Origin: a virus
Taxonomy: Duplodnaviria > Caudoviricetes
Virus record (IMG/VR): IMGVR_UViG_3300007513_000003
DNA length: 64,000 bases
Direction: 5' to 3' (one strand)
The position numbers and the translations under genes are program-made. The notes below the pieces were generated by a model that saw nothing but the letters and a program-made list of their open reading frames with translations, was not told the DNA's origin and searched no databases. Numbering within the stretch: position 1 is the first letter of the stretch; each line of letters opens with the position of its first letter. Positions 40,378 to 64,000 of this stretch are shown one piece after another.

Positions 40378-40406
40378 TTGACAATTAAAAGCATTTAATA
40401 TATAAT
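40378..40406 (+). promoter_or_regulatory. Perfect-consensus sigma70 promoter heading the tailoring cluster
   Basis: TTGACA (40378-40383), 17-nt spacer, TATAAT (40401-40406). A second TTGACA lies at 40365. Confidence 0.85.
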
Positions 40407-40407
40407 A

Positions 40408-40764
40408 ATGTATATGAGTGCAAAAGAAGTAGTAAAGAAAAAGTTTAACCAAAAGGTGGCTCATGCAACAAAGCGTGAGACCACCCTAGGTTTACTTTCC
40501 CTTCCTTATAACGGTGGCTTATTTAAAGTAACACAGGAGTTAATAAGTTTTGGTGAATTAATGTCTTTAAGACACCAAATAGCCACACAAAATGACTTAG
40601 ATGCAAATCCAACAGTAGTTTTAGATTCATTTGAAAACCCAATTTTAATTGAGGATCCAGTAGATTTTACACAGAAGTTATGGCAACGGTATTACGAAGT
40701 AACAAACGAATACTATGCCGAACTAGAAAAAATTCGACAAATTAGAAAACCAGACCAAATTTAA
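40408..40764 (+). CDS. Hypothetical protein; likely starts at ATG 40414 on a leaderless mRNA
   Basis: ORF with no SD. The second ATG lies 7 nt after the -10 box. Confidence 0.7.
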   Translation: MYMSAKEVVKKKFNQKVAHATKRETTLGLLSLPYNGGLFKVTQELISFGELMSLRHQIATQNDLDANPTVVLDSFENPILIEDPVDFTQKLWQRYYEVTNEYYAELEKIRQIRKPDQI

Positions 40765-41606
40765 TGCCAGATGAAAAAGGCGTATTATTATTTGCGTATG
40801 ATAACGAATCAATAAGTTACACAAATCTCGCCATTATTTGTGCTTTATTAGTACGCAAACACTTACCAGGAACAGGAATAGCGTTAGTTACTAACAATCC
40901 TGTCGATGGCCCCTTCGATCATATTATACACGTTGACGCTGGGAACAGCGGAAGAAGAACATTTAGAGGCCCGGAGGGAGAACTCGAAGAACTTACATGG
41001 CACAATAAAACTAGACCCTTAGCATACGATATTTCTCCATTCCACAAAACTTTATTATTAGATGTAGATTATCTTATGTTTAATAATTCGTTGCAAGGGA
41101 TATTTCAAACACAAGAAGAACTAATATGTCATAAAGATGTGTTTGATATAACAGAAAATCATAGTTTTATTGATGATAAGTTATTGCATTGGAGTAGCAT
41201 ACCGATGCTGTGGGCAACTGTATTATATTTTACTAAAGGAGAAACTGCTAAAGCATTTTTCGATTTAATGAAAATGATACAAGAAAATTATATGTATTAT
41301 TATAATCTATATAATTTCAAGAAAGGCCCATACAGAAACGACTATGCTATAAGTATTGCATATAACCTTCTAAGCTTAGAAGGTTACTTCGACAACTCCC
41401 TCCTTACCTTACCTTCTCAATATATTGTTAGTGATGTTAGAGAAGATGGTACGGTAGTGTATGAGTTTGATAATTGTTTATCAACAATAACAAATGCTAA
41501 TTTACACATTATGAACAAGCACAGTATATTAGAAAATGCAAATAATATTATACGATACGCAACACAACCTACTTTAATCCACACAGCACATGAAGCGAAT
41601 CAATGA
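40764..41606 (+). CDS. GT-A fold glycosyltransferase-like protein
   Basis: SPFHKTLLLDVDYL contains a DxD motif. Also WATVLYF and YRNDYAISIA. Paralogous to the next gene. Confidence 0.6.
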   Translation: MPDEKGVLLFAYDNESISYTNLAIICALLVRKHLPGTGIALVTNNPVDGPFDHIIHVDAGNSGRRTFRGPEGELEELTWHNKTRPLAYDISPFHKTLLLDVDYLMFNNSLQGIFQTQEELICHKDVFDITENHSFIDDKLLHWSSIPMLWATVLYFTKGETAKAFFDLMKMIQENYMYYYNLYNFKKGPYRNDYAISIAYNLLSLEGYFDNSLLTLPSQYIVSDVREDGTVVYEFDNCLSTITNANLHIMNKHSILENANNIIRYATQPTLIHTAHEANQ

Positions 41607-42453
41607 TCACAGTGAGCAAATAGGTTACTTTACATTTGTTCAAAACAATGAAACAACAGACTATTTAAAACTTGCGTATGCGTGTGGTTTAAGTTTAAAG
41701 GCAACACAAAGCATAAACAAGTTTGCTATAGCAGTAGACGAAGCAACTAAAGAATGTTTGGAAGACAAACATTATAAAGTATTTGATTATGTTATAGATA
41801 TACCGTGGGGAGATGATAGCGAAGAAGATAGTTGGAAGTTAGGCAACGAATGGAAGGCGTGGGCAATAACACCATTTAAAGAAACAGTTAAATTAGACTG
41901 TGATATGGTGTTTACCAGAAACGTTGACCATTGGTGGACATTTATGCGAGAGCAAGAAATACTAATTGCGACGAATGTACGTAAATTAAATGGACACATT
42001 GCCACATCACGCAAATATAGAAGTGTATTTGATGAAAATAATTTACCAAACGTATATAGTGGGTTTATGTATTTTCGTTACGGTGAGGAAAGTTTAAAAC
42101 TGTTTAAAACACTCAAATGGGTTTACAAAAACTGGAATACAGTAACAGAGAATATTAAAAACTGTAGAGATAATAAACCCACAACAGATGTTGCGTTAGC
42201 TATTGCGTTAGTATTGCAAGAGCAAGAATATACATATACAAATAAAATTATAGATTACCCAACATTTGTACATTTAAAACCAAGCATTCTAGAATGGCCA
42301 GAGCAACACAAAATAGAGGATGTTGTTAATATAAGTTATAGTGATGATGTGGGATTACTTATTGGTGTTGAGCCACAGTTATACCCAGTACATGGTGCTG
42401 ATTGTAAAGAATACTTGGCTGATAAAACAATAGAGTACTATGAAAGGACTTAA
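41590..42453 (+). CDS. GT-A fold glycosyltransferase-like protein
   Basis: TPFKETVKLDCDMV contains a DxD motif. Also YSGFMYF and TDVALAIA. Confidence 0.6.
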   Translation: MKRINDHSEQIGYFTFVQNNETTDYLKLAYACGLSLKATQSINKFAIAVDEATKECLEDKHYKVFDYVIDIPWGDDSEEDSWKLGNEWKAWAITPFKETVKLDCDMVFTRNVDHWWTFMREQEILIATNVRKLNGHIATSRKYRSVFDENNLPNVYSGFMYFRYGEESLKLFKTLKWVYKNWNTVTENIKNCRDNKPTTDVALAIALVLQEQEYTYTNKIIDYPTFVHLKPSILEWPEQHKIEDVVNISYSDDVGLLIGVEPQLYPVHGADCKEYLADKTIEYYERT

Positions 42454-42829
42454 TGAGTTTTTAGAAGCATTAGAAGGCTTTAACTATAGTGAAAAGGAAA
42501 AGCCAGATTATTGTTTATATTATGATGACTCAGGCAGAATATACGAAGCATCAACAGAAGAACGAGAAGGATTAAGTTATATAAAAGTTCCATGGAACTG
42601 GCCAAACGATAACTTTATTACAGATTGGACTGTTGAAGATGGTAAGTTAAAGCCTATAGAAAAATATAATAGCGCAATATCAAAATATAAACAAATAACA
42701 CATGCTTCAGAGTTAGACCATACTCGTCCTGTATTAGTTACTAATAAAGATCATAGGTTAATTAAACGTGTTATTAATCCAGACCAAGTCAAATTTATTA
42801 AAGATGAAAGTTATTACCAATTACAATAG
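42440..42829 (+). CDS. Hypothetical protein
   Basis: ORF overlapping the upstream gene; part of the operon. Confidence 0.65.
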   Translation: MKGLNEFLEALEGFNYSEKEKPDYCLYYDDSGRIYEASTEEREGLSYIKVPWNWPNDNFITDWTVEDGKLKPIEKYNSAISKYKQITHASELDHTRPVLVTNKDHRLIKRVINPDQVKFIKDESYYQLQ

Positions 42830-42837
42830 GAGGAAAA

Positions 42838-43065
42838 ATGGTGACATCACATGCAAAGTTTCCGTGGAAAGTTGAAAAGGGAGACGTAATTAAAAATCAA
42901 GAGTTTAAAGAGGCAGTTAAAATATATAAAAGTGTAAAAGTATGGTGTGAATCAAACTGTAAGGGTGAATATAAAGTCGACGACCGAGTTTATGCCCACG
43001 GCGTAAGGGTAGATTTTAAACGCCCAACAGAAGCATCATTATTTGAAGAACACTTTAACTCATGA
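42838..43065 (+). CDS. Hypothetical protein
   Basis: Strong SD (AGGAGG); part of the operon. Confidence 0.7.
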   Translation: MVTSHAKFPWKVEKGDVIKNQEFKEAVKIYKSVKVWCESNCKGEYKVDDRVYAHGVRVDFKRPTEASLFEEHFNS

Positions 43066-43988
43066 CTGAAATCATCGACATTGCGGACTTAGACTGCATA
43101 TATCTAACATACGATGAACCACAAAAGGATGAGTTTTGGGCAAAGATACTTAATATGGTTCCGTGGGCAAAACACGTTGACGGTGTTTATGGTTCTGATG
43201 CGGCACATAAAGCGGCGGCAGAAGCAAGTGACACAGAACGGTTTGTTTTGATTGACGGAGACAATATGCCTGACCCGGAGTTCTTTAACCTTCAAATTAC
43301 ATTAGATAACGATACAAAAGATTGCGTTTTTAGATGGAAGGGACGTAATGTTATAAACGGACTAATGTACGGCAATGGTGGTTTAAGTTGTTGGCCAGTT
43401 GAGTTTGTAATGAACATGAAATCACATGAAAACACTGATGGCAGAGATGAAACATTGGTTGAATTTTGTTTTGATGACAAATATAGAGCAATGCATAACT
43501 GCTACAGTACAACATATCCAAATGGATCCGAACTTCATGCGTGGAGGGCAGGCTTTAGAGAAGGCGTCAAGATGGTGCTGGATAAAGGATCCCGCCCCAG
43601 TCTCGATACATTTGAGAAACAAATACATGCTCGTAATTACGATAATCTATGTATTTGGCAAACAGTAGGACGCGATGTTGAACACGGCATTTGGGCAATA
43701 TATGGAGCACGTTTAGGCACGTTTTTAACCATGCTTGCAGATTGGGATTATATAAATGTAAGAGACTTTAAGTATCTTACAGAATTGTTTAATGCGGAAC
43801 ACGCAGACAAAGATCCAGAAGCAGAAGCAAGAAGGTTGGGCGAAATACTACAAAACAAATTAGGTATGCCTATATGCGAAATGGATGCTGAATCAAGTAA
43901 GTTTTTTAAAGAGCACTATAGCACACACAAAAACTATGATATCATGATCCAGGAGTTAGATGTAATACGCCAAATTGAAGGCTGGTAA
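43062..43988 (+). CDS. GT-A-like glycosyltransferase-related protein
   Basis: DCIYLTYDEP, VDGVYGSDAAHKAAA and FVLIDGDN (DxD), then NGLMYGNGG and AWRAGFREGVKM. Confidence 0.55.
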   Translation: MTEIIDIADLDCIYLTYDEPQKDEFWAKILNMVPWAKHVDGVYGSDAAHKAAAEASDTERFVLIDGDNMPDPEFFNLQITLDNDTKDCVFRWKGRNVINGLMYGNGGLSCWPVEFVMNMKSHENTDGRDETLVEFCFDDKYRAMHNCYSTTYPNGSELHAWRAGFREGVKMVLDKGSRPSLDTFEKQIHARNYDNLCIWQTVGRDVEHGIWAIYGARLGTFLTMLADWDYINVRDFKYLTELFNAEHADKDPEAEARRLGEILQNKLGMPICEMDAESSKFFKEHYSTHKNYDIMIQELDVIRQIEGW

Positions 43989-45430
43989 TGGAACTATACA
44001 AGGACAATAAGGGCGATAAAGTAGAAGTTGAAGATGGGAAATTTAAATCGGACTTTTACAAAAGCGCAGAAAATATTACAGAGCAATTAGACTCTGTATC
44101 ACCGTCCTTTTGCCTTGCTAAATGGAATCAAGTTAGTTTACATTTACCAACTGGATTAAACAACAGTTGCTACCACCCACCACTACACAAAATAGACGCA
44201 GAAGAAGTTAAACAAAATCCATCTGCTTTACATAATACGCAACACAAGAAACAAATGCGTAAGTTAATGCTAGAAGGAGAACGTCCAAAAGAATGCCAGT
44301 ATTGTTGGAACATTGAAGATACTGGGCATATGAGCGACAGGCATTATAGAAGTGGCGAGCCATGGGCACACATGGACTTTGAAACTATACTTAATGCTCC
44401 GTGGAATGCAGACAAAAACCCACGCTATGTTGAAGTTAACTTTAATCATAATTGCAATCTAAAGTGTAGTTACTGTTCACCACAGTTTAGCACATCGTGG
44501 GAAAAGGAAATGAAGCAGTATGGTGCATGGCCCACAAAAACACCACATAACGCACCTGAACATTTTACTGGCGACAGAGCATGTATTCCACATAGTCATT
44601 ATAATCCACATGTAGAAGCATTTTGGAAATGGTGGCCCGACTTATATAAAGATTTAAAACACTTTAGAATGACTGGCGGCGAACCAATGATGGATAAAAA
44701 TACTTACAAAGTATTTGATTACATTAATGAGCATCCAAAAAGCGATTTACATCTTAACGTAACGAGTAACTTCTCAGTAGAGGATAAACTGTTTAACAAA
44801 TATATTGAAGCAATTAAACCTATTTGCTTAGATGAAAAAGTAGAACACTTTATGCAATATGTTAGCGTTGACACGTGGATGGAGCAAGCGGAATATATAC
44901 GCAATGGATTAGATTTTAATAGAATGTGGGACAACGTTAATAGATTTTTAACAGAAGTTCCATATAGAAACAGCGTTACGTTTATTATTACATATAATAA
45001 TTTAAGTGTAACAGGCATGGATAAACTGTTAGCCGCTATACATGGTTTAAGACAAATATATAGCGAGACTTACCAACGAGTGTGGTTTGATACTCCACTG
45101 TTGAGACAACCACGTTGGCAAAGCATACAATTATTGCCCGAAGCATACCAAATGATACATGACGACAACATTTGTTGGATGTTGGATAATATGGAAGACG
45201 AAAAAACACGCTTTAAGGGATTTAAAGATTATGAAGTTCAACGTATGCAACGTGACTTGGCGTGGTGGCAAGAAGGTAGTAATTTAGACGAGCACTATGT
45301 AAAAGACTGTAAAGCAGATTTTTATAGGTTTTTTAACGAACACGATAAACGCCGAGGAACAAACTTCCTCGAAACTTTCCCCGAAATGATAGATTGGTGG
45401 GAAGAATGTAAGAGGTTGGCGCAATCGTGA
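43988..45430 (+). CDS. Radical SAM enzyme 1 (subgroup A, N-terminal Cys-rich auxiliary domain)
   Basis: CNLKCSYC and MTGGEP. N-terminal FCLAKW...SCYHPP...ECQYCW. Confidence 0.9.
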   Translation: MELYKDNKGDKVEVEDGKFKSDFYKSAENITEQLDSVSPSFCLAKWNQVSLHLPTGLNNSCYHPPLHKIDAEEVKQNPSALHNTQHKKQMRKLMLEGERPKECQYCWNIEDTGHMSDRHYRSGEPWAHMDFETILNAPWNADKNPRYVEVNFNHNCNLKCSYCSPQFSTSWEKEMKQYGAWPTKTPHNAPEHFTGDRACIPHSHYNPHVEAFWKWWPDLYKDLKHFRMTGGEPMMDKNTYKVFDYINEHPKSDLHLNVTSNFSVEDKLFNKYIEAIKPICLDEKVEHFMQYVSVDTWMEQAEYIRNGLDFNRMWDNVNRFLTEVPYRNSVTFIITYNNLSVTGMDKLLAAIHGLRQIYSETYQRVWFDTPLLRQPRWQSIQLLPEAYQMIHDDNICWMLDNMEDEKTRFKGFKDYEVQRMQRDLAWWQEGSNLDEHYVKDCKADFYRFFNEHDKRRGTNFLETFPEMIDWWEECKRLAQS

Positions 45431-46446
45431 AAAATGAATTTAACTGGCCACTGTGGCATTGGCATATTGAACTTAGTAGTTTATGTACGTTAAAATGTCC
45501 TAGATGTTCTAGAACAGAAAAACCACAAACATTAGAAAGAGATAATTTAACATTAGGCTTTTTTACAAAAAACTTTACTAAGGATATCTTAACACAAATA
45601 AAAAGAATTACATTGTGTGGCTACGACGGTGATCCAATTTACAATAGAGAATTTATAGAGATTTGTGAATATTTTAAAACTATTAATCCTAAAATAGAGT
45701 TAAGTATTGTTACCAATGGTAGTTACAAACCAGTAGTATGGTGGGAAAGATTGGCTAAAGTATTAAACAAATACGATCAGGTGCATTTTAGTTTGGATGG
45801 TTATGATCAAGAAAGTAATGAGAAATATAGAATAAATTGTGATTGGAATAGTATAATGGAAGGCGTAAATGCATTAAGAAAAAAACCTGTTAGATTAGTA
45901 TGGGATATGATATATTTTTCTTTTAATTATAAACATGAAGATCATATGATAGCACTTGCAAAGGAACTAAATTTTGATGCTATAAGACAAACTAAAAGTA
46001 ATAAGTTTAATTTTTATTATCAACACTATGATAATTCTTTAGATCCTATAGAAGATTACATTAGTAAATCTGGTAGATACGAAAGTAATACCATACGTCT
46101 TACAAAAAGGAAAATATACGATGATAGTTTTAAGACAGCAGTACAGTTATATAAAAAGCAATCTTTGGTGGGTGATTTAATACCTTATTGCTTTATAGGT
46201 ACAAAAGGGTTATTCATTGATAGCAGAGGATATTTTTATCCGTGTTGCTGGATTATTAATAGATATAATGATGAGGCATATAAAAACTGGTTGACGCATG
46301 ACAAGAACATAAAACAACGTGGGTTAGAATCAGTATTAAACAATCCTTGTTGGAAAGAATTTATAGAAAACATACCTAAGTTGGATATATGTAATTTAAA
46401 ATGTAAATCAACTGAGGTTAATAAAGAAACAGTAATGAGGTTTTAA
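45427..46446 (+). CDS. Radical SAM enzyme 2 (C-terminal SPASM/twitch-like domain)
   Basis: CTLKCPRC, CGYDGDP, TNGS and SLDG. C-terminal C...G-x-FYPCCW...CNLKC. GTG start. Confidence 0.9.
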   Translation: MKNEFNWPLWHWHIELSSLCTLKCPRCSRTEKPQTLERDNLTLGFFTKNFTKDILTQIKRITLCGYDGDPIYNREFIEICEYFKTINPKIELSIVTNGSYKPVVWWERLAKVLNKYDQVHFSLDGYDQESNEKYRINCDWNSIMEGVNALRKKPVRLVWDMIYFSFNYKHEDHMIALAKELNFDAIRQTKSNKFNFYYQHYDNSLDPIEDYISKSGRYESNTIRLTKRKIYDDSFKTAVQLYKKQSLVGDLIPYCFIGTKGLFIDSRGYFYPCCWIINRYNDEAYKNWLTHDKNIKQRGLESVLNNPCWKEFIENIPKLDICNLKCKSTEVNKETVMRF

Positions 46447-47814
46447 ATGACACTAAGAAAACCGGGTAGAGAGACCGATTTAGAGGTCAAAAAATGGCTA
46501 AATAATACTATAAGTCCATCTTTTTGTATGGCAAAATGGAGGAACGCTACAATATGGTTAGGAAGTGGAATGACAACAAGTTGTCATCACCCGCCTGCCC
46601 ACGAAATAGATGTAACAGAACTTCAATCCAATCCAGCCGCTATCCATAACACATTCCAAAAAAAGAAAGATCGACACAATATGCTAATGGGACAACGTCC
46701 TGCTGGCTGTGAGTATTGTTGGAAGATTGAAGATATTGGGCCCGATGCTATTTCGGATCGTGTCCATAAATCAGTCATTTATGACGAGGAGGATGTTAAT
46801 TATGTCAAAGACAAATTACCGACAGAAAATTTTGCACTTCGCACTCTTGAGACCGCCTTTGATCGGACTTGCAACTTTAGCTGTTCTTACTGTAATCCTG
46901 CTTTTAGTAGTTCCTGGGTAAAGGATATCAAAAAAGATGGACCGTACGAAAATCTAATTAGCGACGGTCGTAATCATTTTACTCATACCCACCCTTCTGC
47001 TCAATTATACAAAAAGGATGAAACTAATCCTTATGTTGAAGCGTTCTGGAAGTGGTGGGATGAGGAATTACACGAAACACTTGATGAACTTCGTATTACT
47101 GGTGGCGAACCATTGATGTCTGACGACATATGGAAACTATTTGAATGGTTTAAAAATAGTGACAGGCAAACAAATATGCGTTTTGCTATTAACAGTAATC
47201 TGGGTGCCAAAGACGAACTATTAGATAGATTTATTGAAAATGCACAGCATGTTCCGCACTTGCATTTATATACAAGTTGTGAAGCGATGGGCGTACAAGC
47301 AGAATATATACGTGATGGATTAGAGTGGAATAGATGGGTGAGTAATTGCCACAGAGCCTGTACCGAAGGAAACCTTGAAGGTTTTCATATGATGTGTACA
47401 ATTAACGCATTGTGTTTAAACTCTCTTCCACAATTTTTACAGCAACAATTGGAATTTAAAGAAGAGTACGGATCGAGCTTTCCAACATTTACATTAAATA
47501 TTTTACGTTTTCCAAGTTTCCAATCTCCGTTGGTATTGCCGAAAGAAATACTTGCGGAGTTTAGAGGGGATATACAAGGTTGGTATAGAAAAGCAAAGAA
47601 AAATAAGTTGATGCATGAAATGGAACGCAATCACGTAGAGCGTTTAATAGATTATTTAGATGTGGTAGAAACACCGCACAGCGATACATTTGAAAAACCA
47701 GCATTGCATAATGATTTTTATCATTTCTACAAACAATATGATGAGCGTAGAAGAAAGAATTTTGTAGAAACGTTTCCACGCCTAGCAGATTGGTATAATA
47801 GTTTAAATGGATAA
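46447..47814 (+). CDS. Radical SAM enzyme 3 (subgroup A)
   Basis: CNFSCSYC and ITGGEP. N-terminal FCMAKW...SCHHPP...GCEYCW. Confidence 0.9.
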   Translation: MTLRKPGRETDLEVKKWLNNTISPSFCMAKWRNATIWLGSGMTTSCHHPPAHEIDVTELQSNPAAIHNTFQKKKDRHNMLMGQRPAGCEYCWKIEDIGPDAISDRVHKSVIYDEEDVNYVKDKLPTENFALRTLETAFDRTCNFSCSYCNPAFSSSWVKDIKKDGPYENLISDGRNHFTHTHPSAQLYKKDETNPYVEAFWKWWDEELHETLDELRITGGEPLMSDDIWKLFEWFKNSDRQTNMRFAINSNLGAKDELLDRFIENAQHVPHLHLYTSCEAMGVQAEYIRDGLEWNRWVSNCHRACTEGNLEGFHMMCTINALCLNSLPQFLQQQLEFKEEYGSSFPTFTLNILRFPSFQSPLVLPKEILAEFRGDIQGWYRKAKKNKLMHEMERNHVERLIDYLDVVETPHSDTFEKPALHNDFYHFYKQYDERRRKNFVETFPRLADWYNSLNG

Positions 47815-54663: not shown

Positions 54664-54664
54664 A

Positions 54665-55441: not shown

Positions 55442-56531
55442 AATTGTAATGACGTTAAGAACAAGATATCATAGTACTATGGATGTCTATATTGACGTAT
55501 ATGATACAGGGTTAAGTCGCAAATGGCTTACAGCGTTAAACGGAATACTTAACGACAATTTAATACTTGAAAAAAACTATTGCTTTTTGGGTTTTGTAAA
55601 CGGAAAACGATCAGGGCAATTGATTCTTGATGAAATCAACGATACGATAGACTTTATTAACAGTAGTTCATTAAACTATAATATAGAAACAGCGCCATAT
55701 ACATTAGAAAATTGTATTAATTATGGTGAAGTAGGGTTTGGCCATCCAGGACTATCCATTAAACATGAAAAGTTTAATTGGTTACATAGATGGTTTGAAG
55801 AATTACAAGGCATTGATACAGGTGATACGTCAACGTCAATGTCTCGGCATTTTAAAAACGCCACACCTGAAGAAAAGTATCATATAAGGCAACTTAATTT
55901 GTTATGTCACGAGTTTGAAACATGGGCATTAACTAATCGTAAGTTAGTACAGGCGCCTGAGTGGATGCAGAAGTCACAATTAATGTGTTGGTTAAATGCA
56001 CCACGCTTTGATTTAGTAGATGAATCAGACTTCGAAGGGTTTGGAATTGGTAGCTTAGACAAAGTGTTTGGCGGTGTTTATGTAGGTGTTAATAAAGCAG
56101 TTGGTAAAACGCATTGGGAAGTTTTTATAGATGAAGGTGGTGCATTAGATATCAGTGGTGGCAATACAATGACATTGGGTGAAATTACTATTGCATGCCG
56201 ATCACAAACAAAAGCCGCAGGTGATTTTGATATTAGTTGGTCAAGGAAGTCAGATTTCCCACATCATAATGAACGAATTAATGAATTTATAAATTGGTTA
56301 AGGCAAAACGGATTAGATCCTGATGATCCAACATTAACATTGGGGCATCCACAGGTAGGACAAGTTAACTTACAAAAGTCTTTTAATACTGACATACCTT
56401 ATCTAACTTGGTATATTATGAATGACTATTTAGATGTTTATAAGTTACAAACATCTGACGCAAGTGCTACATTCGATTATTTTTGGCACGATAGTAACTT
56501 TAAACAATTACAAATAGATCAAATACGTTAA
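55425..56531 (+). CDS. Hypothetical protein with conserved His motifs; paralog of 61768-62697
   Basis: NWLHRWF, LNLLCHEFE, VGKTHW and LGHPQVGQV. Confidence 0.75.
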   Translation: MKKLDEIVMTLRTRYHSTMDVYIDVYDTGLSRKWLTALNGILNDNLILEKNYCFLGFVNGKRSGQLILDEINDTIDFINSSSLNYNIETAPYTLENCINYGEVGFGHPGLSIKHEKFNWLHRWFEELQGIDTGDTSTSMSRHFKNATPEEKYHIRQLNLLCHEFETWALTNRKLVQAPEWMQKSQLMCWLNAPRFDLVDESDFEGFGIGSLDKVFGGVYVGVNKAVGKTHWEVFIDEGGALDISGGNTMTLGEITIACRSQTKAAGDFDISWSRKSDFPHHNERINEFINWLRQNGLDPDDPTLTLGHPQVGQVNLQKSFNTDIPYLTWYIMNDYLDVYKLQTSDASATFDYFWHDSNFKQLQIDQIR

Positions 56532-56539
56532 ATAAGAAT

Positions 56540-57367
56540 ATGAAAATATGCATCTCATCCGGAGATAGTTTTACTTATGGTGCTGAATTACCAAATGATA
56601 GTATTGGACCTAGTAAATATGCTTGGAGTAATTTAGTATCTAATAAACTAGGAGCCAAGCACATAAACACGGCAGCTAGTGGAAGAGGCAATGCATTTAT
56701 GGCACGGCGAGTGTTATATTATACTATTGAATTCTTAAAGAAGTATGATCCTGAAGATGTTTTTGTACAAGTCATGTATACATTTATTGCAAGGCGCGAG
56801 TTCAAATTAATAAATGGAACATTGAATGACCAAATGTATAAAGTAGATTCAGAGTGGTTATCGTTAGATCCTTATGCCGCAACCAATGAAGTAAAATCTG
56901 AATGGTTTAAAAAGGTTAGTTCTGATGCTCCCAATTACGAAAGTACTAAAGCCACTTTAGAAAGAAAATATAATATATATAAAGAAGCAGGCATTGTAGA
57001 CTTAGCAAAAGCATGGTATTATACTGTAAGCGATGAAGACGATGTATATACCAGTTTAAAAGAAATATTATTACTTCAAGAATTTTTGAATAGTAAAAAT
57101 ATTAAATACTTATTCACATACGTAGGACATCATACGCCTTCGCAATTATTTGAAGATCATACTAATCAATATACTATTAATTTAAGAACATTAATTGATA
57201 AAGATGTATGGTTTCATTTTCCCGGAGCATGGCCAACAAGTAAGTATTTGGGATTCAATGACTGGGCACTTATAAATAATTATGAATTTGCAACTTCGCA
57301 TCCTTTAGAGAAAGCACACGAAGACGCGGCAGAGATAATTTATGAACACATTAAAAAAATACTATAA
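56540..57367 (+). CDS. SGNH/GDSL hydrolase-like protein
   Basis: SGDSFTYG, ASGRGN, C-terminal SHP...H. Confidence 0.7.
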   Translation: MKICISSGDSFTYGAELPNDSIGPSKYAWSNLVSNKLGAKHINTAASGRGNAFMARRVLYYTIEFLKKYDPEDVFVQVMYTFIARREFKLINGTLNDQMYKVDSEWLSLDPYAATNEVKSEWFKKVSSDAPNYESTKATLERKYNIYKEAGIVDLAKAWYYTVSDEDDVYTSLKEILLLQEFLNSKNIKYLFTYVGHHTPSQLFEDHTNQYTINLRTLIDKDVWFHFPGAWPTSKYLGFNDWALINNYEFATSHPLEKAHEDAAEIIYEHIKKIL

Positions 57368-57476: not shown

Positions 57477-57508
57477 ATATTTAAATATTTATTAATAAAT
57501 ATTTAAAT
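57472..57508. repeat. 22-nt perfect A/T palindrome plus a 15-nt direct repeat
   Basis: aataaatatttaaatatttatt at 57472-57493; aataaatatttaaat at 57472 and 57494. Confidence 0.8.
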
Positions 57509-58577
57509 GAAAGTTGATTACTTACGTTATATAAGAAGCACACCTTCAATAAGTTCTATTAGACACAAGTATAAATTGGGAGATAACCAATTACATCCTT
57601 TTAAAGAAGATGTTTATTGTATAATGCCAAGCAGTTCAATTCTTGTTAACAAACTTGGCCACGTATTCATCTGTTCATGCCATGGTCATTTACCTTATCT
57701 AATTGGTAATATAAAAGATTTTAACACTATAGAAGAAATATGGAACAATTCAATTGCTAAAAAACTACAAGAACATACTTCAGCAGGAAGCAGTTTTAAG
57801 TTTTGTAATACAGCAAAATGCACCGGGCCTATACGATTCGGTGATTTCCCTCAAAGGTATTCATTTATATTTGCTATTGATGATAGTTGCAATTTACAAT
57901 GTCCAAGTTGCCGGCCAGAATTTAGGTTTATTAATAAGGGTCCTGAATTTGAGTTAAGAAAAAGTTATGCAATGCATTTTTTAGATTTGGTGTCAAACTT
58001 TGAACACGCGTCTTTAATAGAATTGGGAGGCGACGGAGAACCATTTGCTAGTGGAATTTATGGTGATATAATCTATAATTATATTCCTAGAAAAAATCAT
58101 AAATTTACAATTCGGTCAAACGCCACACGCATAAATTATAAAAAGCTTTTAAATTCAAAAGTTATGGATCAAGTAACATCTTTTGCAGTTAGTATTGATG
58201 CAGGAAGTGAAGAAGTATATAGAAAAGTGCGTTACCCAGGTAACTGGAGTACTGTTATTGATAGTCTAGACTTTTTGAAAGAGAACAATCGTTATTTTCA
58301 TTTATCATTCGTATTACAAAAAAATAATTATAGGGATGTTATAAATTTTGCAAACCTATGTCAAAAGTACAATGTTGGTGCCACTATTAGTAGTATAGAA
58401 GATTGGGGTTCTTGGTGGGTTAACAATTACAATACCAACTTATTTTTAGAGCAAGCAGTTTTTTTGCCAAACAATTCATTGTACAGTGATTGCATAAACA
58501 TGTTAAACAAACTTAAAAATCACCAACATTATAAAAATGGATATATAACATTAAAGGGTTCATTAATTAATATATGA
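57507..58577 (+). CDS. Radical SAM enzyme 9 (subgroup C; paralog of 51688-52824)
   Basis: DDSCNLQCPSC (identical to enzyme 7) and GGDGEP. N-terminal CIMP...ICSC...FCNTAKC. Confidence 0.9.
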   Translation: MKVDYLRYIRSTPSISSIRHKYKLGDNQLHPFKEDVYCIMPSSSILVNKLGHVFICSCHGHLPYLIGNIKDFNTIEEIWNNSIAKKLQEHTSAGSSFKFCNTAKCTGPIRFGDFPQRYSFIFAIDDSCNLQCPSCRPEFRFINKGPEFELRKSYAMHFLDLVSNFEHASLIELGGDGEPFASGIYGDIIYNYIPRKNHKFTIRSNATRINYKKLLNSKVMDQVTSFAVSIDAGSEEVYRKVRYPGNWSTVIDSLDFLKENNRYFHLSFVLQKNNYRDVINFANLCQKYNVGATISSIEDWGSWWVNNYNTNLFLEQAVFLPNNSLYSDCINMLNKLKNHQHYKNGYITLKGSLINI

Positions 58578-58807
58578 TAGTAATCGACTACCACGGCTAT
58601 TCCATACAAGAAGCATATGATGACATTATTGCTACTATTAAAGAATGCCATGAAGAAAGAATTAAAAAAATAAAAATAATTACAGGCAAAGGAAGTATTT
58701 GCCAAGAATTCCCACTGTGGATCGAATGTAGCCCACTAGTAAGAAAAATAGAACAAAGCGACGACGGCGGGTGCTTTTACCTATGGATATTAGTCAAGAA
58801 AAAATAA
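58574..58807 (+). CDS. Stand-alone Smr domain protein
   Basis: IDYHG...IKIITGKG...DDGG matches the Smr motifs LDLHG and IIHGKG. Confidence 0.75.
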   Translation: MIVIDYHGYSIQEAYDDIIATIKECHEERIKKIKIITGKGSICQEFPLWIECSPLVRKIEQSDDGGCFYLWILVKKK

Positions 58808-59430
58808 TATTCACAAACGGTGATAGTTTTACGTTTGGGGATGAGTTAGAACATCCGTTTTCTGAATGTTGGCCAGCCAAGTTGGGTGAAATAACTAGAC
58901 TTCAAGTAGTTAATTTTGCACGTTCCGGTGCCGCAAATAATCGTATAGTAGAAACTACCAAAAACTTTTTTAACGATTTGGCCAGACTATCTGTTTTTAA
59001 TACTGGTAAAAGGAAATCATTGAATTCAGTAACTGAAATAGAATGTGCTGTAATACAATGGACTTCGTATATTCGATTGGGGCCAAACGAAACTATACCA
59101 AAGAATATTGTGTTAGGAGAGAATGAAAAAAATTATCTATTAGATAATTTTTTTGTACAAATAAGAGAATTACAGGATTTTTTCGAGTCTAGACGTATAC
59201 CTTATTTGATGCTTAATGCTTTTGATAATGAAAAAGTAATACCACAATGTAATTCTGAGTTTAAAGACCTAGTTGACGATAAGTATTTTATAGGGTGGCC
59301 AAACCAAGCAATAGTTAATTGGGTGTATGGTATGGATCACGGTCCTAAAGGCCATCCAGGAAAATTGGCACATGCTGAAATAGCAGAGATTATCTATGAA
59401 AATATTAGGAATAAGTTGCGGGTTTCATGA
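58771..59430 (+). CDS. SGNH/GDSL hydrolase-like protein (start may be ATG 58783)
   Basis: NGDSFTFG, ARSGAAN, GHPGKLAH. Confidence 0.7.
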   Translation: MLLPMDISQEKIIFTNGDSFTFGDELEHPFSECWPAKLGEITRLQVVNFARSGAANNRIVETTKNFFNDLARLSVFNTGKRKSLNSVTEIECAVIQWTSYIRLGPNETIPKNIVLGENEKNYLLDNFFVQIRELQDFFESRRIPYLMLNAFDNEKVIPQCNSEFKDLVDDKYFIGWPNQAIVNWVYGMDHGPKGHPGKLAHAEIAEIIYENIRNKLRVS

Positions 59431-61063
59431 CGCTGCCGCCAGTTTAATAGACGATTCTGGAAATATACTTTTTGCTGGACACGCGGAAAGATATAGTAAG
59501 CAAAAACACGACAATAACTTAAATTATGAATTAATAATTGACGCACTTAAACATGGATTTCCCGAAGTTGTTTCGTATTACGAAAATCCATGGATTAAAA
59601 AAACTCGCCAAGCATATTCCGGACAATGGAAAGATGCATTAAGTTTAAAAAATCTTTCCATTAAAAAAATGCTTGTTAAGCAAACTGAATTAAGTTGGAA
59701 TTTTACCAAACATTTTAATTATCATAATCACCATTTATCCCATGCCGCCGCGGGCTTTCAAACAAGTCCATTTAATGATGCAACTATAGTAGTTATTGAC
59801 GCGATAGGAGAATGGGATACTATTACAATATGGAATGCACAATACAATCACAATGGTTATGCAAAATACGAAAAAGTTTGGGGTGCAAAATATCCAAATA
59901 GTATTGGTTTGTTTTATAGTGCTATGACTGATCGCGTAGGCCTACGCCCACTAGATGAAGAATACATTTTAATGGGAATGGCCGCATATGGATTTCCAAT
60001 ATATTCGCGAGACTTAATTGATACCTTTTGGGAAACAAATAACTTAAATAAAATAGTTTTTAAACTAAAAGAGAACTTACACGCTGGTACAAATTGGCGA
60101 AGTAATGAACTTCGGTACGGCGCACGGCTCGCGGCCAATTACTTGGCAGAAATGGAAGATCAAGATAATTATGACATTGCGGCATCTTCGCAACAAGTTT
60201 TAGAGTTTATGGTAGGCCATATTATGACTCACGCTAAAAAACATTGCAAATCTACAAATTTAGTTTATATGGGCGGCGTTGCATTAAATTGCGTTGCAAA
60301 TACAAAAGTAGCAAATAACTGGAATAATATTTGGATTATGCCTAATCCAGGAGATGCTGGTAGCAGTTTAGGTGCCGCCGCATTAACATATGGTAAAAAA
60401 TTAAATTGGGAGCATCCATATCTCGGCTATGATATTAGTGGCCAATATCCAGAAGCAGAGATTATAAAAGAGTTGTTAGAAGGAAACATCGTGGGTGTTG
60501 CTAACGGTAAAGCAGAGTTTGGTCCAAGAGCATTAGGCAATAGAAGTTTATTAGCAGATCCACGCGGTGATGATATTAAAGATAAAGTAAATGAAATAAA
60601 ACGCAGACAAAAGTTTCGTCCATTTGCGCCAATGATATTAGAAGAAAGAGCACATGAGTATTTTGATATGCCAGATACTTTATTGTTTGAAACAGCAACT
60701 AGAGCAGATTATGCAAACAAACATGGCGTAATACTACATCGCAATAAAAGGAAATTAGCATCTCCTTATATGCAGTTTGTAGCCAAATGTAAGAAGCCAA
60801 AAGAGTTCCCGGCTATTGTACATGCAGACGGAACAAGTAGAGTGCAAACAGTAGGCCCAAATGATAATCCAAATGTAAGAAATTTACTTAAAATGTGGGA
60901 ATACTATACAGGTTGTCCAATGTTATTAAATACCAGTTTAAATATTAGAGGTGAGCCAATGGTAAATGATGTTGCCGATGCTATAAGATTTACTAAAAAA
61001 TATGGCATTCCTGTATATACTGCCGCCGGTGCAGTTACCATGGGTAGGCATGTGAGGTTTTAA
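59396..61063 (+). CDS. Carbamoyltransferase, NodU/CmcH/TobZ family
   Basis: HDAAA, HHLSHAA, MGMAAYG, GGVALNC, GDAG, EFGPRALGNRSLLADPR, FRPFAP, HADGTSRVQTV and LLNTSLN. Confidence 0.95.
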   Translation: MKILGISCGFHDAAASLIDDSGNILFAGHAERYSKQKHDNNLNYELIIDALKHGFPEVVSYYENPWIKKTRQAYSGQWKDALSLKNLSIKKMLVKQTELSWNFTKHFNYHNHHLSHAAAGFQTSPFNDATIVVIDAIGEWDTITIWNAQYNHNGYAKYEKVWGAKYPNSIGLFYSAMTDRVGLRPLDEEYILMGMAAYGFPIYSRDLIDTFWETNNLNKIVFKLKENLHAGTNWRSNELRYGARLAANYLAEMEDQDNYDIAASSQQVLEFMVGHIMTHAKKHCKSTNLVYMGGVALNCVANTKVANNWNNIWIMPNPGDAGSSLGAAALTYGKKLNWEHPYLGYDISGQYPEAEIIKELLEGNIVGVANGKAEFGPRALGNRSLLADPRGDDIKDKVNEIKRRQKFRPFAPMILEERAHEYFDMPDTLLFETATRADYANKHGVILHRNKRKLASPYMQFVAKCKKPKEFPAIVHADGTSRVQTVGPNDNPNVRNLLKMWEYYTGCPMLLNTSLNIRGEPMVNDVADAIRFTKKYGIPVYTAAGAVTMGRHVRF

Positions 61064-61067: not shown

Positions 61068-61640
61068 ATGGATAAAAATACAATAGTAATATATGGCGCA
61101 AAAAGGAGTGGTAATCATTATTTGCAAAGTTATTTTAAAAACCAAGGGCATGAGTGCGAATTTAGACATGAAGCAGATTACGCTAAAAAATTATATGATG
61201 AAAAAGGAAAACATCTAATAGTTTTAGTGCGTAATCCTAGAGACCAAATTATATCTAACTCTTATAGTATGTTTAATGCTGATAAAGATGGGTATAGCGT
61301 GGGCACAAAAAATCGACCATTAACAGATTTATCTCCGCAAGAAATACCATATCAAGTTGTTGGTTCAGCATGCCAATACCTTAAAGATTTTACAGATACC
61401 ATGGTACCGCTTATAGCAACTCGCCCATACCAGTTCATATTATATGATACCATAGCACAGAAAAATTTAAACAGTATATACACAAAACGCGATCTAGAAT
61501 ATTATAAAAAAGCAATCTTAAATTATGATGGTATTTTAGATGTGCTTAATAGAAGCGACATAGAAGAATATTGTTTAAAAATATGGCGAGCGTTTAATCT
61601 TCAACAAACAGTTTTTTATCCTGAATTAGCAAATGTATGA
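61068..61640 (+). CDS. Sulfotransferase-like P-loop protein
   Basis: GAKRSGNHYL resembles the 5'-PSB loop; VRNPRDQIIS resembles the 3'-PB motif. Confidence 0.65.
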   Translation: MDKNTIVIYGAKRSGNHYLQSYFKNQGHECEFRHEADYAKKLYDEKGKHLIVLVRNPRDQIISNSYSMFNADKDGYSVGTKNRPLTDLSPQEIPYQVVGSACQYLKDFTDTMVPLIATRPYQFILYDTIAQKNLNSIYTKRDLEYYKKAILNYDGILDVLNRSDIEEYCLKIWRAFNLQQTVFYPELANV

Positions 61641-61767
61641 CATAATATAAATATAATTAATACTATAAAAATTTCTATAAAATTAATATAAACAAGTTCA
61701 ATCAAATAATATTTTCAATTAATTAATAATTAAATTCGATCAAATAGTTTTTCGATTAGGAAAACAT

Positions 61768-62697
61768 TTGATGAACAGGATTGAACTAGTTAGCCAAGGG
61801 CGTTCTTTGGCAGTTATTGAGTTTCGGAATCATCCATTTGTTAACAAATGGTTCGAACATTGGAAATATATAAACTCTAATTTCCAAGCATATACGCTAA
61901 ATTATCTATATCCAACAAATTCGTGGAAGCCAGCACCGTCTATAGACATAGTTAAAAAATCAATTGATTCTATTAGAGACGCGGGGTTATACCTAAACTC
62001 TATTACAAATACACATATATTCCCATATGATTCAGATAATTTTCCAAGTTATGATATTTTCTTAGAAAATGGATTAGAAGCACAGCAATATTTAAACACA
62101 TTCCATAGGCATTTTACTAATGGTATTCGCGAACCTCATGGAAGAGATTTATTAAAAAATGGAATGATTAAAAAAGAAGAGGATACATCCAATTGGATTA
62201 ACAGAATACAAGAAATCAACCAAGCAGTTCATGACTTAGATAGTTATACAAGAACTCCCCATTTGCAAAGTATTCCTATTTTAGATTATTTCAGTATACA
62301 GTATCATTTATATAATGAAAACATGTATCTGTCAGAAAGTGTTCATTGTCCTATTACACCCGAAGAATGTTTAAGTGCGGCAGATGATAGTAATAATTGG
62401 AATGTGTGGCTAAAAGTAGATTTACTAGGCAAAGATTACATAACAGGATTTATAAATCATGATAATCCTACTGAATGGGATATACAATATTTAAATAATT
62501 ATACTGGTATGTTTGTACTTTATCCTAACAAAACGCCAGTAGATTTTTGCAAAAACAAAATATTTTACAAATGGTTGCAACAATATAACTTAGAATATGA
62601 TCCTAGAATGTGTGGCATTCCGCTTGGTAAAATAAACTATATTGTAGATGATTATCATAATTATCATAATTCAGATTTATTGATTCAAGAATTGTAG
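61768..62697 (+). CDS. Hypothetical protein; paralog of 55425-56531 (start probably ATG 61771)
   Basis: NTFHRHF, INQAVHDLD, LGKDY and CGIPLGKI. Confidence 0.75.
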   Translation: MMNRIELVSQGRSLAVIEFRNHPFVNKWFEHWKYINSNFQAYTLNYLYPTNSWKPAPSIDIVKKSIDSIRDAGLYLNSITNTHIFPYDSDNFPSYDIFLENGLEAQQYLNTFHRHFTNGIREPHGRDLLKNGMIKKEEDTSNWINRIQEINQAVHDLDSYTRTPHLQSIPILDYFSIQYHLYNENMYLSESVHCPITPEECLSAADDSNNWNVWLKVDLLGKDYITGFINHDNPTEWDIQYLNNYTGMFVLYPNKTPVDFCKNKIFYKWLQQYNLEYDPRMCGIPLGKINYIVDDYHNYHNSDLLIQEL

Positions 62698-62745
62698 TAA
62701 ATTCTATTAACAAAATTAAATATTATATACAGTAAGATTTCCCAC

Positions 62746-64000
62746 ATGTATGACATAATAAGCAGGGATGACATCGATGACATTCACGAGGCGGCCGCCA
62801 AATGCAAAACGAGATATTTTTGGTACGTTGATCATGGTGTTGATTGTACTGGGTTTGATTTCAATTGGGTTCCTGTACCATGGGAATCCGAGTTTGTACA
62901 TATCTTCCCAAGCAAATGGCAACGTGACGGCGGAATAAGATTAGTCAATAAGCAACATCCCGAAGAACAAATAAAATTACATAATAGTAATGTTGTTCCA
63001 CGAGAATCTACGAAAAGAAATTGGATTCTCAATGACGATACTGATTACAGTAACTTCGACTTCAGTTGGCATCCTGACAATTTGGATGACGATTTTACAT
63101 ACGTCTTTCCTTCGCAGTGGCAAAGAGATGGTGGCACGTACTATGTTACAGAGCCTGGCGCGCCTAAGAAGTATGTTAGTGATCAGGTAACAAAACGCAC
63201 AAACTGTTTGGATAACTGGAAACTACCGAATGTAGACACAACTGAGTTCGACTTTAGTTGGCACCCCGATCCTGCTGAAAAACCTTACACGTATGTTTTC
63301 GCTTCGCAATGGCAACGTGATAGTGGAACACACTATATTACAGAACCCGGCGCACCGCGTAAGTACGCTAATGACCAAACAACAATAAGAGATGTTCCTG
63401 TTAGTTCCGATACTAGTGTTGTGTCTGCAGATAATATTAAACATACTAGCGATATTAAACACGGTTGGAAACTACATGAAGATACAGACTACAGTAACTT
63501 TGACTTTAGTTGGCATCCTGATCCATCACACGGAGATTTTACTTATGTGTTTCCTTCACAATGGCAAAGAGATGGCGGTACATACTATGTTACAAGTCCT
63601 AATGCACCGCGTAAGTATGTTAGTGATCAGGTAACAAAAAGAATACCAAATAAAGATAATTGGAGTCTCAACAAATATACTGACTATACTAATTTCGATT
63701 TTAGCTGGCATCCTGACCCATCATATGGTAACTACACGTATGTTTTCCCTTCGCAATGGCAACGTGATGGCGGCACATATTATGTAACTGCCCTCGATTC
63801 GCCTAAAAAGTATATTAGCGACCAAGTAACAAAACGTACCAACTGTCTAGATAATTGGGAATTGCCAGACAATATAGACACAAGTGAGTTTGACTTTAGT
63901 TGGCATCCTGATCCCTCGCACGGCGACTACACATATGTATTTCCTTCATTATGGCAACGTAATAGCAATGTTTGTTATACTACAAAAGAAGGTGCACCAA
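62746..64000 (+). CDS. Trp-rich tandem-repeat protein, truncated at the window end (at least 418 aa)
   Basis: Not in the ORF track because it has no stop in the window. Open from ATG 62746. Six units with core F-D-F-(S/N)-W at 62854, 63055, 63247, 63499, 63694 and 63889. Confidence 0.85.
   Translation, partial: MYDIISRDDIDDIHEAAAKCKTRYFWYVDHGVDCTGFDFNWVPVPWESEFVHIFPSKWQRDGGIRLVNKQHPEEQIKLHNSNVVPRESTKRNWILNDDTDYSNFDFSWHPDNLDDDFTYVFPSQWQRDGGTYYVTEPGAPKKYVSDQVTKRTNCLDNWKLPNVDTTEFDFSWHPDPAEKPYTYVFASQWQRDSGTHYITEPGAPRKYANDQTTIRDVPVSSDTSVVSADNIKHTSDIKHGWKLHEDTDYSNFDFSWHPDPSHGDFTYVFPSQWQRDGGTYYVTSPNAPRKYVSDQVTKRIPNKDNWSLNKYTDYTNFDFSWHPDPSYGNYTYVFPSQWQRDGGTYYVTALDSPKKYISDQVTKRTNCLDNWELPDNIDTSEFDFSWHPDPSHGDYTYVFPSLWQRNSNVCYTTKEGAP

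Follow-up and report, generated by a model that had tools for sequence, protein, structure and literature searches.

What would an uncultured marine jumbo phage make with nine radical S-adenosylmethionine (SAM) enzymes encoded beside its tail fibres? The question is raised by a 64,000-nucleotide stretch of DNA (the window, by which we mean this whole stretch) that corresponds to the minus strand of positions 9695-73694 in the 124-kb IMG/VR virus record IMGVR_UViG_3300007513_000003 (Duplodnaviria; Caudoviricetes), a record with an estimated completeness of 35%. An initial annotation, made from the letters of the window and its open reading frames (ORFs), had proposed that more than 23 kb of co-oriented, often overlapping genes at 40378-64000 build and decorate a glycan. 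The ORF listing bears out this arrangement, with 25 genes on the + strand between 40408 and the window end, many of them overlapping by a few bases. The proposed start of the cluster also holds, in that 40378 is the first base of a sigma-70-type promoter matching the consensus at 12/12 positions, but the proposed end does not, since the operon passes 64000 by ~2.4 kb and its last gene, encoding 1224 amino acids (aa), runs to window-equivalent position ~66420. The cluster is one co-oriented operon of ~26 kb, comprising 40378-64000 and the ~2.4 kb beyond. The answer that we favour is that this self-contained phage operon makes and decorates a sugar or short glycan, with a virion protein as the acceptor; we consider it probable that the pathway is sugar-based in some form, and we give the full statement, acceptor included, about an even chance.

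The presence of eight consecutive radical SAM genes and of a ninth at 57507, as first annotated, was confirmed: each of the nine proteins contains exactly one CX3CX2C motif, which marks the SAM-cleaving 4Fe-4S cluster, all nine match PF04055, and 7 of 9 match PF13186 (SPASM). The PF04055 gathering score of 29.5 bits is exceeded by 6 of 9, and the three proteins below it, encoded at 43988 (21 bits), 46447 (28 bits) and 52826 (28.5 bits), still reach 290-328 bits on NF033640 (N_Twi_rSAM), the NCBIfam model for “twitch domain-containing radical SAM protein”, which has a curated cut-off of 170 bits. Six proteins in total (43988, 46447, 47807, 49110, 50360 and 52826) match this model at 290-407 bits, with 51688 (65 bits) and 57507 (45 bits) below the cut-off and 45427 giving no match at all. 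Based on their sequences, we class six of the window proteins as NF033640-type enzymes with an N-terminal twitch domain, two as related to these, and one as a classical radical SAM-SPASM enzyme.

What sets these enzymes apart is the position of the auxiliary Fe-S domain, which in 8 of the 9 proteins is N-terminal to the radical SAM core rather than after it; PF13186 accordingly matches at residues ~10-110, ahead of the core. Four cysteines of this domain (C46, C65, C106 and C109 in the numbering of 47807) are invariant in these eight proteins, as are the CX3CX2C cysteines and a GGEP motif in their alignment. When the family profile was compared with PDB sequences, BtrN was the sole match, exactly over the BtrN C-terminal twitch domain (E 0.002). 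BtrN, from the butirosin pathway, likewise combines a radical SAM core with a twitch domain carrying a single auxiliary cluster, and it is to this domain that the four-cysteine domain aligns; the twitch domain of BtrN is C-terminal, whereas that of the phage enzymes is N-terminal, and there is no overall sequence similarity between them. A comparison of the whole N-terminal-twitch protein with PDB sequences found no solved relative, and our literature search found no characterised member of NF033640.

Phylogenetic analysis placed each window paralogue with its orthologues from distant phages and not with its gene neighbours. The paralogues are mutually 20-27% identical (45% for 47807 and 49110), and orthologues are 50-90% identical. 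Taken together, the eight window paralogues gave too diverse an alignment for genome scanning, and a closer alignment was used. All of these genes are on the + strand. The N-terminal-twitch genes comprise orthogroup A (43988..45430; NF033640 328 bits, CX3CX2C), orthogroup B (46447..47814; 310 bits, with an orthologue of 51% identity in the Ralstonia jumbo phage RsoM2USA), orthogroup C in two copies (47807..49120, 407 bits, and 49110..50363, 399 bits), orthogroup D (50360..51706; 352 bits) and orthogroup E (52826..54139; 290 bits). The two copies of orthogroup C are a recent duplication. A shorter radical SAM gene with an N-terminal SPASM/twitch-like domain (51688..52824; PF04055 and PF13186) groups with the ninth gene (57507..58577; PF04055, PF13186, CX3CX2C, and a TAAATA hexamer at -11) in an accessory group F. 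The classical radical SAM gene with a C-terminal SPASM domain (45427..46446; PF04055 and PF13186) is accessory and variable: it is missing in the related loci L015 and L024 and replaced in L020-22, and a contig of a related strain from a marine RNA library joins 45424 to 46447, lacking exactly this gene.

Glycosyltransferase (GT) candidates accompany the radical SAM genes. Three genes at the front of the cluster had been described as GT-A-like from their DxD motifs, and this description is supported, though not through Pfam, where 40764 and 41590 (at E <= 0.01) and 43062 had no match. The genes at 40764..41606 (+ strand; DVD at residues 100-102) and 41590..42453 (+ strand; DCD at residues 103-105; with orthologues as low as 31% identical) are paralogues (hhalign probability 100), and their joint profile finds 19 sequences of glycogenin (GT8), with E from 1e-4 to 4e-3, across ~100 residues ending at the DxD, one aspartate of which (D105 in 41590) is invariant in a 14-sequence alignment. 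Because no Pfam family matched, we call both proteins GT8-like and not members of GT8. For the third gene (43062..43988, + strand; DGD at residues 65-67), a profile search of PDB sequences gave only spurious matches (ankyrin designs and DppA), and a fold search was needed instead. In an AlphaFold2 (AF2) model with a predicted local distance difference test score (pLDDT) of 95.4, built from a 70-sequence alignment, residues 3-170 take a GT-A fold, followed by a helical C-terminal half. The best VIA match was B4GALNT1 (Z 9.4, root-mean-square deviation 3.1 Å, 140 residues aligned), with CHSY3, WrtF, STIV A197, SunS and PBCV-1 A64R at Z 8-9; the Foldseek rows consisted entirely of GT-A enzymes and nucleotidyltransferases, and Mimivirus R655 and R699 are, with A64R, among the structural matches. 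The DxD follows the fourth strand, and both D65 and D67 are kept in at least 90% of 70 homologues of 30-48% identity. We therefore take the 43062 protein to be a predicted GT-A-fold transferase, of an unnamed and almost purely viral family that counts over 8000 clusters at 90% identity and, at 50%, 1367, the remote members of which include fusions to GT-B (GT28/EryCIII-like) domains. A fourth GT-A-like domain, homologous to 43062, forms the C-terminus of the 1224-aa core protein that starts at 62746 (62746..64000 within the window, + strand), where it follows ~13 repeats (FDFSWHPD...YVF.SQWQRDGG). The check that the initial annotation had proposed for the GT-like proteins, i.e., for a GT-A fold, was in favour of its reading for all three front genes, through the glycogenin alignment up to the DxD and the fold comparison of 43062.

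The assignment of 59396..61063 (+ strand) to the NodU/CmcH/TobZ family of O-carbamoyltransferases was equally borne out, with both Pfam domains well above their cut-offs (PF02543, E 2.6e-39; PF16861, E 1.3e-52; 136 and 178 bits for Carbam_trans_N and Carbam_trans_C against cut-offs of 24 and 27). Like TobZ, NodU and CmcH, the phage protein has these two domains at full length, with the YrdC-like and Kae1-like pairing. It reaches 145 bits on the NodU model, for which the cut-off is 1000, and is not NodU itself. Orthologues of 44-73% identity are present in all relatives, including RsoM2USA, and this is a core gene.

Genes for making nucleotide-sugars, which the initial annotation suggested should be sought downstream of the window, were found there in this genome and in its relatives. 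In this genome (G000:C1:3812-7315, window-equivalent ~66380-69883), a module on the opposite strand that converges on the 3′ end of the 1224-aa gene, just past the window, encodes an NAD-dependent epimerase/dehydratase, a DegT/DnrJ/EryC1 aminotransferase, a PIG-L deacetylase and ThyX. Dehydratase/epimerase-like and/or DegT-like genes follow the cluster in the related records G001, G002 and G004 and in L030, and RsoM2USA has an epimerase-like gene near its cluster; in G003 and G004, ThyA stands in place of ThyX at the corresponding position. A bacterial parallel comes from a complete Crocinitomicaceae chromosome, where three N-terminal-twitch radical SAM genes lie inside a polysaccharide locus with genes for UDP-glucose dehydrogenase, an epimerase, a carbamoyltransferase, a GT4-UbiA-GDSL fusion, a sulfotransferase, a GDSL protein and a PhyH oxygenase, i.e., the same accessory enzyme types as those of the phage operon. 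The inference of a glycan-building and decorating pathway is supported by the GT-A features, the nucleoside diphosphate (NDP)-sugar genes, this bacterial locus, the match of the twitch domain to BtrN, and co-conservation of the cluster.

Conservation of the cluster in related phages was another check that the initial annotation had proposed, and we find the genes to be both co-conserved and collinear. Marine ENA contigs and 13 IMG/VR loci contain the same genes in the same order at identities from 90% down to ~35%, and a collinear cluster is also carried by three contigs binned into Legionellales and Haliscomenobacter metagenome-assembled genomes (MAGs). The core consists of 40408, 40764, 41590, 43062, the five radical SAM orthogroups, 55425, the carbamoyltransferase and the repeat/GT-A protein, and the variable shell of 45427, 51688/57507, the flavoprotein, the oxygenase-like protein, the SGNH-like pair, the Smr protein and the sulfotransferase-like protein. 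Among the IMG/VR and ENA relatives, the operon is always preceded by the genes for a 513-aa fibre-like protein and a 303-aa protein, and the repeat/GT-A protein always comes after the carbamoyltransferase, either directly or after 1-2 shell genes.

The only cultured phage with clear orthologues is RsoM2USA, in which a reduced cluster, made up of ORF347-354 together with ORF199/202, is split between two loci; ORF350 is the 43062 orthologue and ORF349 a radical SAM gene. The first contains 40408, both GT8-like genes, 43062, radical SAM orthogroup A and a second 43062-like gene, and directly follows genes for a baseplate wedge, a 2541-aa virion protein and the sheath; the second contains radical SAM orthogroup B and the carbamoyltransferase. 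The virion proteins of RsoM2USA have been confirmed by mass spectrometry (PMC8504454). A megablast search of GenBank phages with the radical SAM block gave no match, and the matches of tblastn against the same set, 22-38% identical, were confined to RsoM2USA, two Vibrio phages and a single marine fragment. The cultured, 255-kb Vibrio phage K566 (L010) has, at ~9470-19400, four distant N-terminal-twitch-like radical SAM genes of 21-26% identity, which form their own clade and occur without GT genes. In a relative of 50% identity (L012-L014, 15695-18188), genes for an FNR-like NAD-binding protein and for a PF01883 Fe-S assembly protein flank the carbamoyltransferase; as a pair, these two might serve the radical SAM enzymes specifically, in reduction and in cluster delivery.

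We infer the chemistry, the order of the steps and the acceptor as follows. Phage NDP-sugar enzymes (4,6-dehydratase/epimerase-type, DegT and PIG-L) would turn an NDP-hexose of the host into an amino-deoxy sugar; the five related phage records yielded no sugar-1-phosphate nucleotidyltransferase, and the starting NDP-sugar is therefore probably that of the host. Sugars would be transferred by the four GT-A-type domains, two of them glycogenin-like, one of the new family and one at the end of the 1224-aa repeat protein. The five N-terminal-twitch orthogroups may, like BtrN, use radical chemistry on sugar carbons, oxidising or epimerising them or functionalising C-H bonds, the TobZ-type enzyme would O-carbamoylate a hydroxyl group, and the variable shell (SGNH-like, sulfotransferase-like and oxygenase-like proteins, the flavoprotein and the extra radical SAM enzymes) may add or remove further groups. 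The product would be made in the host cytoplasm and would decorate the fibres via a virion protein of the adjoining tail-fibre/baseplate module.

Several observations bear on the acceptor. No membrane-type segment was found in the cluster proteins (no 19-residue hydrophobic window above 1.6), and family scans of these proteins gave no match to polyprenyl-phosphate priming transferases, flippases, polymerases or exporters. Because of these absences the acceptor would be cytoplasmic, i.e., DNA, a soluble molecule or a phage protein not yet assembled, and since no cluster protein has a membrane segment we favour virion proteins, with DNA as the main rival. The initial annotation had, rightly, left the acceptor open between virion proteins, the host surface and DNA. 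The regions immediately 5′ of the cluster contain, in order, T4-like baseplate genes, a 4936-aa ORF, a 221-aa gene, the 513-aa fibre-like gene and the 303-aa gene. The 513-aa protein (37785..39326, + strand), with PHROG matches to tail fibres and virion proteins and a weak match to the Peptidase_G2 intramolecular chaperone, is a candidate acceptor, and its orthologue is directly 5′ of the cluster in all relatives. The 303-aa protein, encoded by the last gene ahead of the operon (39452..40363, + strand), has no Pfam or PHROG match, and its orthologues (34-84% identity) keep their position. This fixed link to fibre and baseplate genes across very distant relatives supports a virion protein as the probable acceptor. 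Also in its support are TAAATA hexamers, which resemble the T4 late promoter TATAAATA, located on the + strand at 18334-18339, 36954-36959, 56529-56534 and 57496-57501, 5-6 nt before the ATG of four genes, two structural and two in the cluster (56540 and 57507). Such a placement at 4 of 35 genes compares with ~0.02 expected by chance.

A number of points weigh against this reading. The virion protein is a candidate acceptor proposed from gene linkage, and a glycan on protein is a prediction. The GT8 link of 40764 and 41590 is an E-value of 1e-4 over ~100 residues only, and the GT-A scores of 43062 (Z 8-9.4) are moderate, with nucleotidyltransferases of the same superfamily reaching Z 7-8. The lack of a sugar-1-phosphate nucleotidyltransferase counts on the same side. 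The consensus sigma-70 promoter suggests transcription by the host polymerase, possibly early, and not co-expression with late structural genes. Homologues of the radical SAM enzymes also occur in bacteria in settings other than sugar pathways. For example, a Bacteriovoracaceae MAG (UBA6144; L047, 6040-18036) contains eight N-terminal-twitch radical SAM genes, representing all five phage orthogroups, without GT or carbamoyltransferase genes, on a contig that carries Obg and with a nucleotidyltransferase nearby; an Elusimicrobia MAG (L050, 49-13551) encodes five consecutive proteins of 564-1128 aa in which a long tetratricopeptide repeat (TPR) array, a type of repeat that often binds proteins, is fused to an N-terminal-twitch radical SAM domain; and in a Cytophagales MAG (L110, 8739-11224) such a gene lies between two giant non-ribosomal peptide synthetase/polyketide synthase (NRPS/PKS) genes, with a TauD oxygenase and a GT2 as further neighbours. 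Singleton homologues in Reichenbachiella and Agaribacillus have uninformative neighbours. Since one of these modules has no GT genes and another homologue belongs to an NRPS/PKS cluster, the NF033640-type family is not tied to glycans; N-terminal-twitch radical SAM proteins are a general tailoring family, and the sugar assignment of the phage operon rests on its own neighbours. The radical SAM set behaves as a transferable module.

The remaining points on this side, i.e., that a thymidylate synthase gene, ThyX (G000, G001 and G002) or ThyA (G003 and G004), lies within a few kb of the cluster end in all five genomes, and that a phage enzyme of the TobZ family carbamoylates 5-hydroxymethylcytosine (5hmC) in DNA (PMC8670742), speak for DNA hypermodification, in which a tailored, carbamoylated sugar on a hydroxymethylated pyrimidine or other modified base would protect the genome from host nucleases. 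The early expression to which the promoter points, the solubility of all cluster proteins and an Smr nuclease-type domain inside the cluster fit this alternative, and virus glycosyltransferases that hypermodify DNA with glycans have been reported (Pyle 2024, as cited in PMC12619734). The 5hmC-carbamoyltransferase clade has signature residues (W408, G421 and R423 in TobZ numbering) and is, however, marked by genes for a thymidylate synthase homologue, MazG and dCMP deaminase within ~3 kb (PMC8670742), and the window carbamoyltransferase differs in its neighbourhood: the genes within 3 kb encode SGNH-like, Smr, sulfotransferase-like and unknown proteins, and ThyX is ~8 kb away on the other strand. 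The thymidylate synthase genes are on the opposite strand and of two unrelated types, which would be expected if they belonged to an adjoining module of nucleotide metabolism; G001, a relative that is 90% complete, lacks any ThyA-family gene able to serve as a hydroxymethylase (the lack of ThyA in the present 35%-complete fragment is uninformative alone), and the cluster is linked to fibre genes in every relative. We consider DNA as the acceptor unlikely. Remodelling of the host envelope, with lipopolysaccharide, capsule or another surface glycan altered, for instance to block superinfection, would share the early-type promoter, and the same enzyme types are found in the bacterial polysaccharide locus described above; serotype changes of the host brought about by phage glycosyltransferases are on record (reviewed in PMC12619734). 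No cluster protein, however, has a membrane-spanning segment, and the family scans matched no priming transferase for polyprenyl-phosphate, no flippase or polymerase and no ABC exporter. Temperate phages are the typical agents of serotype conversion, and the window proteins scanned included no match to an integrase or to a lysogeny family. We give this alternative the least credence, with a very low probability.

Two further alternatives would dispense with a decorated macromolecule or with the sugar as the target of the radical chemistry. The enzyme set has a parallel in the pathways to butirosin, neomycin and tobramycin, i.e., a BtrN-like twitch domain, the TobZ family, DegT, a PIG-L/BtrD-type deacetylase and glycosyltransferases, and the homologue inside the Cytophagales NRPS/PKS cluster is also consistent with a soluble product, such as an aminoglycoside-like pseudo-oligosaccharide or other metabolite acting on the host or on competitors while unattached to any macromolecule. 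Against such a product, no homologue of 2-deoxy-scyllo-inosose synthase/3-dehydroquinate synthase (DHQS) was found in the five phage records, so that an aminocyclitol route, which would need a DHQS-type cyclitol synthase, is not supported; the family matches of the cluster include no exporter or self-resistance gene, and the fixed position in a virion structural module would be left unexplained. We regard this as improbable. The twitch radical SAM enzymes might instead act directly on the 4936-aa protein or the fibres, introducing cross-links, epimerisation or oxidation as do maturases of peptides that are ribosomally made and then modified post-translationally (RiPPs), with glycosylation as a side decoration. 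Peptide maturation is the best-known role of SPASM/twitch radical SAM enzymes (PMC11002830), the window proteins have weak NCBIfam matches to sactipeptide, ranthipeptide and WgkB maturases, long TPR arrays accompany the radical SAM domain in the Elusimicrobia fusions, a cyclophilin-like barrel (Z ~8) is modelled for the core protein 55425, and giant structural proteins adjoin the operon. Nevertheless, neither a PqqD/RiPP recognition element domain nor a precursor-like conserved peptide was found; the 118-, 129- and 75-aa ORFs were considered as RiPP precursors and do not suit that role, the small ORFs being poorly conserved or without cysteine. Among PDB sequences the twitch domain matches only BtrN, a sugar enzyme, there is a tight link between the cluster and sugar genes, and the radical SAM set in the Bacteriovoracaceae MAG occurs in a 21-kb locus in which BLAST found no homologues of the window fibre proteins. 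Direct radical modification of proteins thus has, in our estimate, a similarly small probability.

Returning to the sugar pathway with a virion-protein acceptor, virus-encoded glycosylation is already known in giant viruses, chloroviruses and mycobacteriophages, as is glycosylation of DNA, and we know of no characterised virus pathway composed like the present operon. The nine-gene cluster of Mimivirus and PBCV-1 A64R are likewise virus-encoded, host-independent sugar machinery linked to surface structures, and these giant-virus systems contain an NDP-sugar 4,6-dehydratase, a DegT-type aminotransferase and GT-A transferases; to our knowledge, neither radical SAM enzymes nor a carbamoyltransferase are among their components. 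Both are systems of eukaryotic viruses, and the likeness shown here to the phage cluster is structural. Glycosylation of mycobacteriophage virions is known (Freeman et al. 2023, as cited in PMC12619734), and, as far as that citation describes it, GT genes there also lie beside structural genes and virion proteins are modified in the cytoplasm. By the same account, mycobacteriophages use 1-2 GT genes and host sugars, whereas the system described here is a 26-kb operon with nine radical SAM genes, its own sugar-nucleotide genes and a tailoring shell, known from genes alone.

The initial annotation knew of no characterised phage pathway of such composition, and our search of the literature on N-terminal SPASM/twitch domains with phage, or on radical SAM, carbamoyltransferase and tail fibre together, found no paper on such a cluster. 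The nearest report is of a 183-kb, T4-like environmental marine viral genome with 12 radical SAM genes, for which no function was given (Nishimura et al. 2017, PMC5332604); these genes were counted as Fe-S proteins among Fe-S assembly genes, and no operon, GT, sugar link or orthogroups were described. We believe that this 12-gene array is probably the same kind of cluster as ours. The five-orthogroup N-terminal-twitch set, the new GT-A family and the repeat/GT-A protein are without a characterised counterpart, and the five-orthogroup set is common to abundant aquatic myophages and to some predatory bacteria. More tentatively, and as a proposal that we hold to be possible but rather doubtful in its entirety, the five ancient orthogroups may form a multi-step radical pathway to a hyper-modified amino sugar, carbamoylated and possibly sulfated or acylated, that would be displayed on the fibres or on the giant baseplate protein as a virion “glycocalyx” for host recognition or for shielding from defence. 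These families are very large in aquatic metagenomes and the system is very widespread, with thousands of relatives. If our reading is right, many marine and freshwater phages spend ~26 kb on a sugar tailored by radical chemistry, which would mean new enzymology in the form of five distinct conserved radical SAM steps, and an extra layer of phage surface or DNA chemistry that bears on host range, on defence evasion and on the interpretation of “Fe-S auxiliary genes” in viromes. Experiments are possible because the cultured RsoM2USA carries the reduced cluster.

The accessory enzymes of the operon, all on the + strand, vary in how far their initial assignments held. The HugZ/PNPOx-like protein (54115..54663) was confirmed by profile as a CREG/PNPOx-like split-barrel protein of flavin-binding type (PF13883, E 2e-11; PF01243, E 4e-6). 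The other three assignments are putative and draw mainly on motifs. A 258-aa protein (54665..55441), described as 2-oxoglutarate (2OG)-Fe(II)-like, has the HVD...H (HxD...H) pattern and no Pfam, PHROG function or PDB match, and is a possible oxygenase. The two SGNH-like proteins, a putative hydrolase/acyltransferase (56540..57367, with TAAATA at -11) and a second protein (58771..59430), are related to each other (hhalign probability 98) and share the GDS block I motif (GDSFTYG and GDSFTFG) and C-terminal SHP and GHP motifs, and the profile match is borderline for the first (DUF6071, 27.4 bits against a cut-off of 27) and below the cut-off for the second. The small sulfotransferase-like protein (61068..61640) has the motifs GAKRSGNH and RNPRDQIIS and a sub-threshold match to PF13469 (E 0.006); its only two PDB matches are both sulfotransferases and weak (E 0.26), and its orthologues in G001 and G002 are 73% identical.

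The core protein encoded at 55425..56531 (+ strand), with orthologues in all full clusters, is modelled by AF2 (pLDDT 87) as a cyclophilin-like beta-barrel with a helical insertion. It gave no Atlas match, no PDB profile match and no Foldseek match, and we draw no function from its VIA scores to cyclophilins (Z 7-8.5), which fall inside the stated background of the tool. The smaller genes, again on the + strand, begin with a conserved 118-aa protein encoded by the first gene of the operon (40408..40764), which has orthologues in all close relatives and in RsoM2USA, and continue with proteins of 129 aa (42440..42829) and 75 aa (42838..43065) that are kept only in closer relatives; neither these three nor the 309-aa protein at 61768..62697 matched a family. 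A stand-alone Smr-domain mini-protein of 77 aa (58574..58807; PF01713, E 9e-9) is kept in the tailoring shell of L017 and L026 and is an odd member of a sugar pathway.

The promoter ahead of the first gene, TTGACA-N17-TATAAT (40378..40406, + strand), is the only 12/12 match in the 40 kb scanned and ends 1 nt before the annotated ATG; a transcript would begin close to the second ATG (40414), which implies a leaderless or near-leaderless mRNA. The same promoter recurs ahead of the orthologous gene in L015, L017, L019, L020 and L024 despite differing spacers, and four of these five relatives have an extended TG -10 element. Marine RNA libraries (four runs from four studies) hold contigs, 90-99% identical to the window, that cover parts of 40408-50808 and 53184-54465; we do not count them as proof of transcription or of the start site, because such libraries can hold DNA and some of the contigs run upstream through the promoter.

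Upstream of the fibre-like gene, the single 4936-aa ORF (22138-36948, + strand) follows a baseplate wedge gene and encodes a YHYH domain (residues 2193-2399), an FG-GAP repeat and, near residue 4353, a T7-tail-fibre N-terminal domain; in RsoM2USA, the 2541-aa virion protein, which is weakly similar, occupies the equivalent place. The portal protein is ~50% identical to the portals of the jumbo myophages PA5oct, Atu_ph07 and Phosso, and near-identical DNA is present in seawater and estuary metagenomes.

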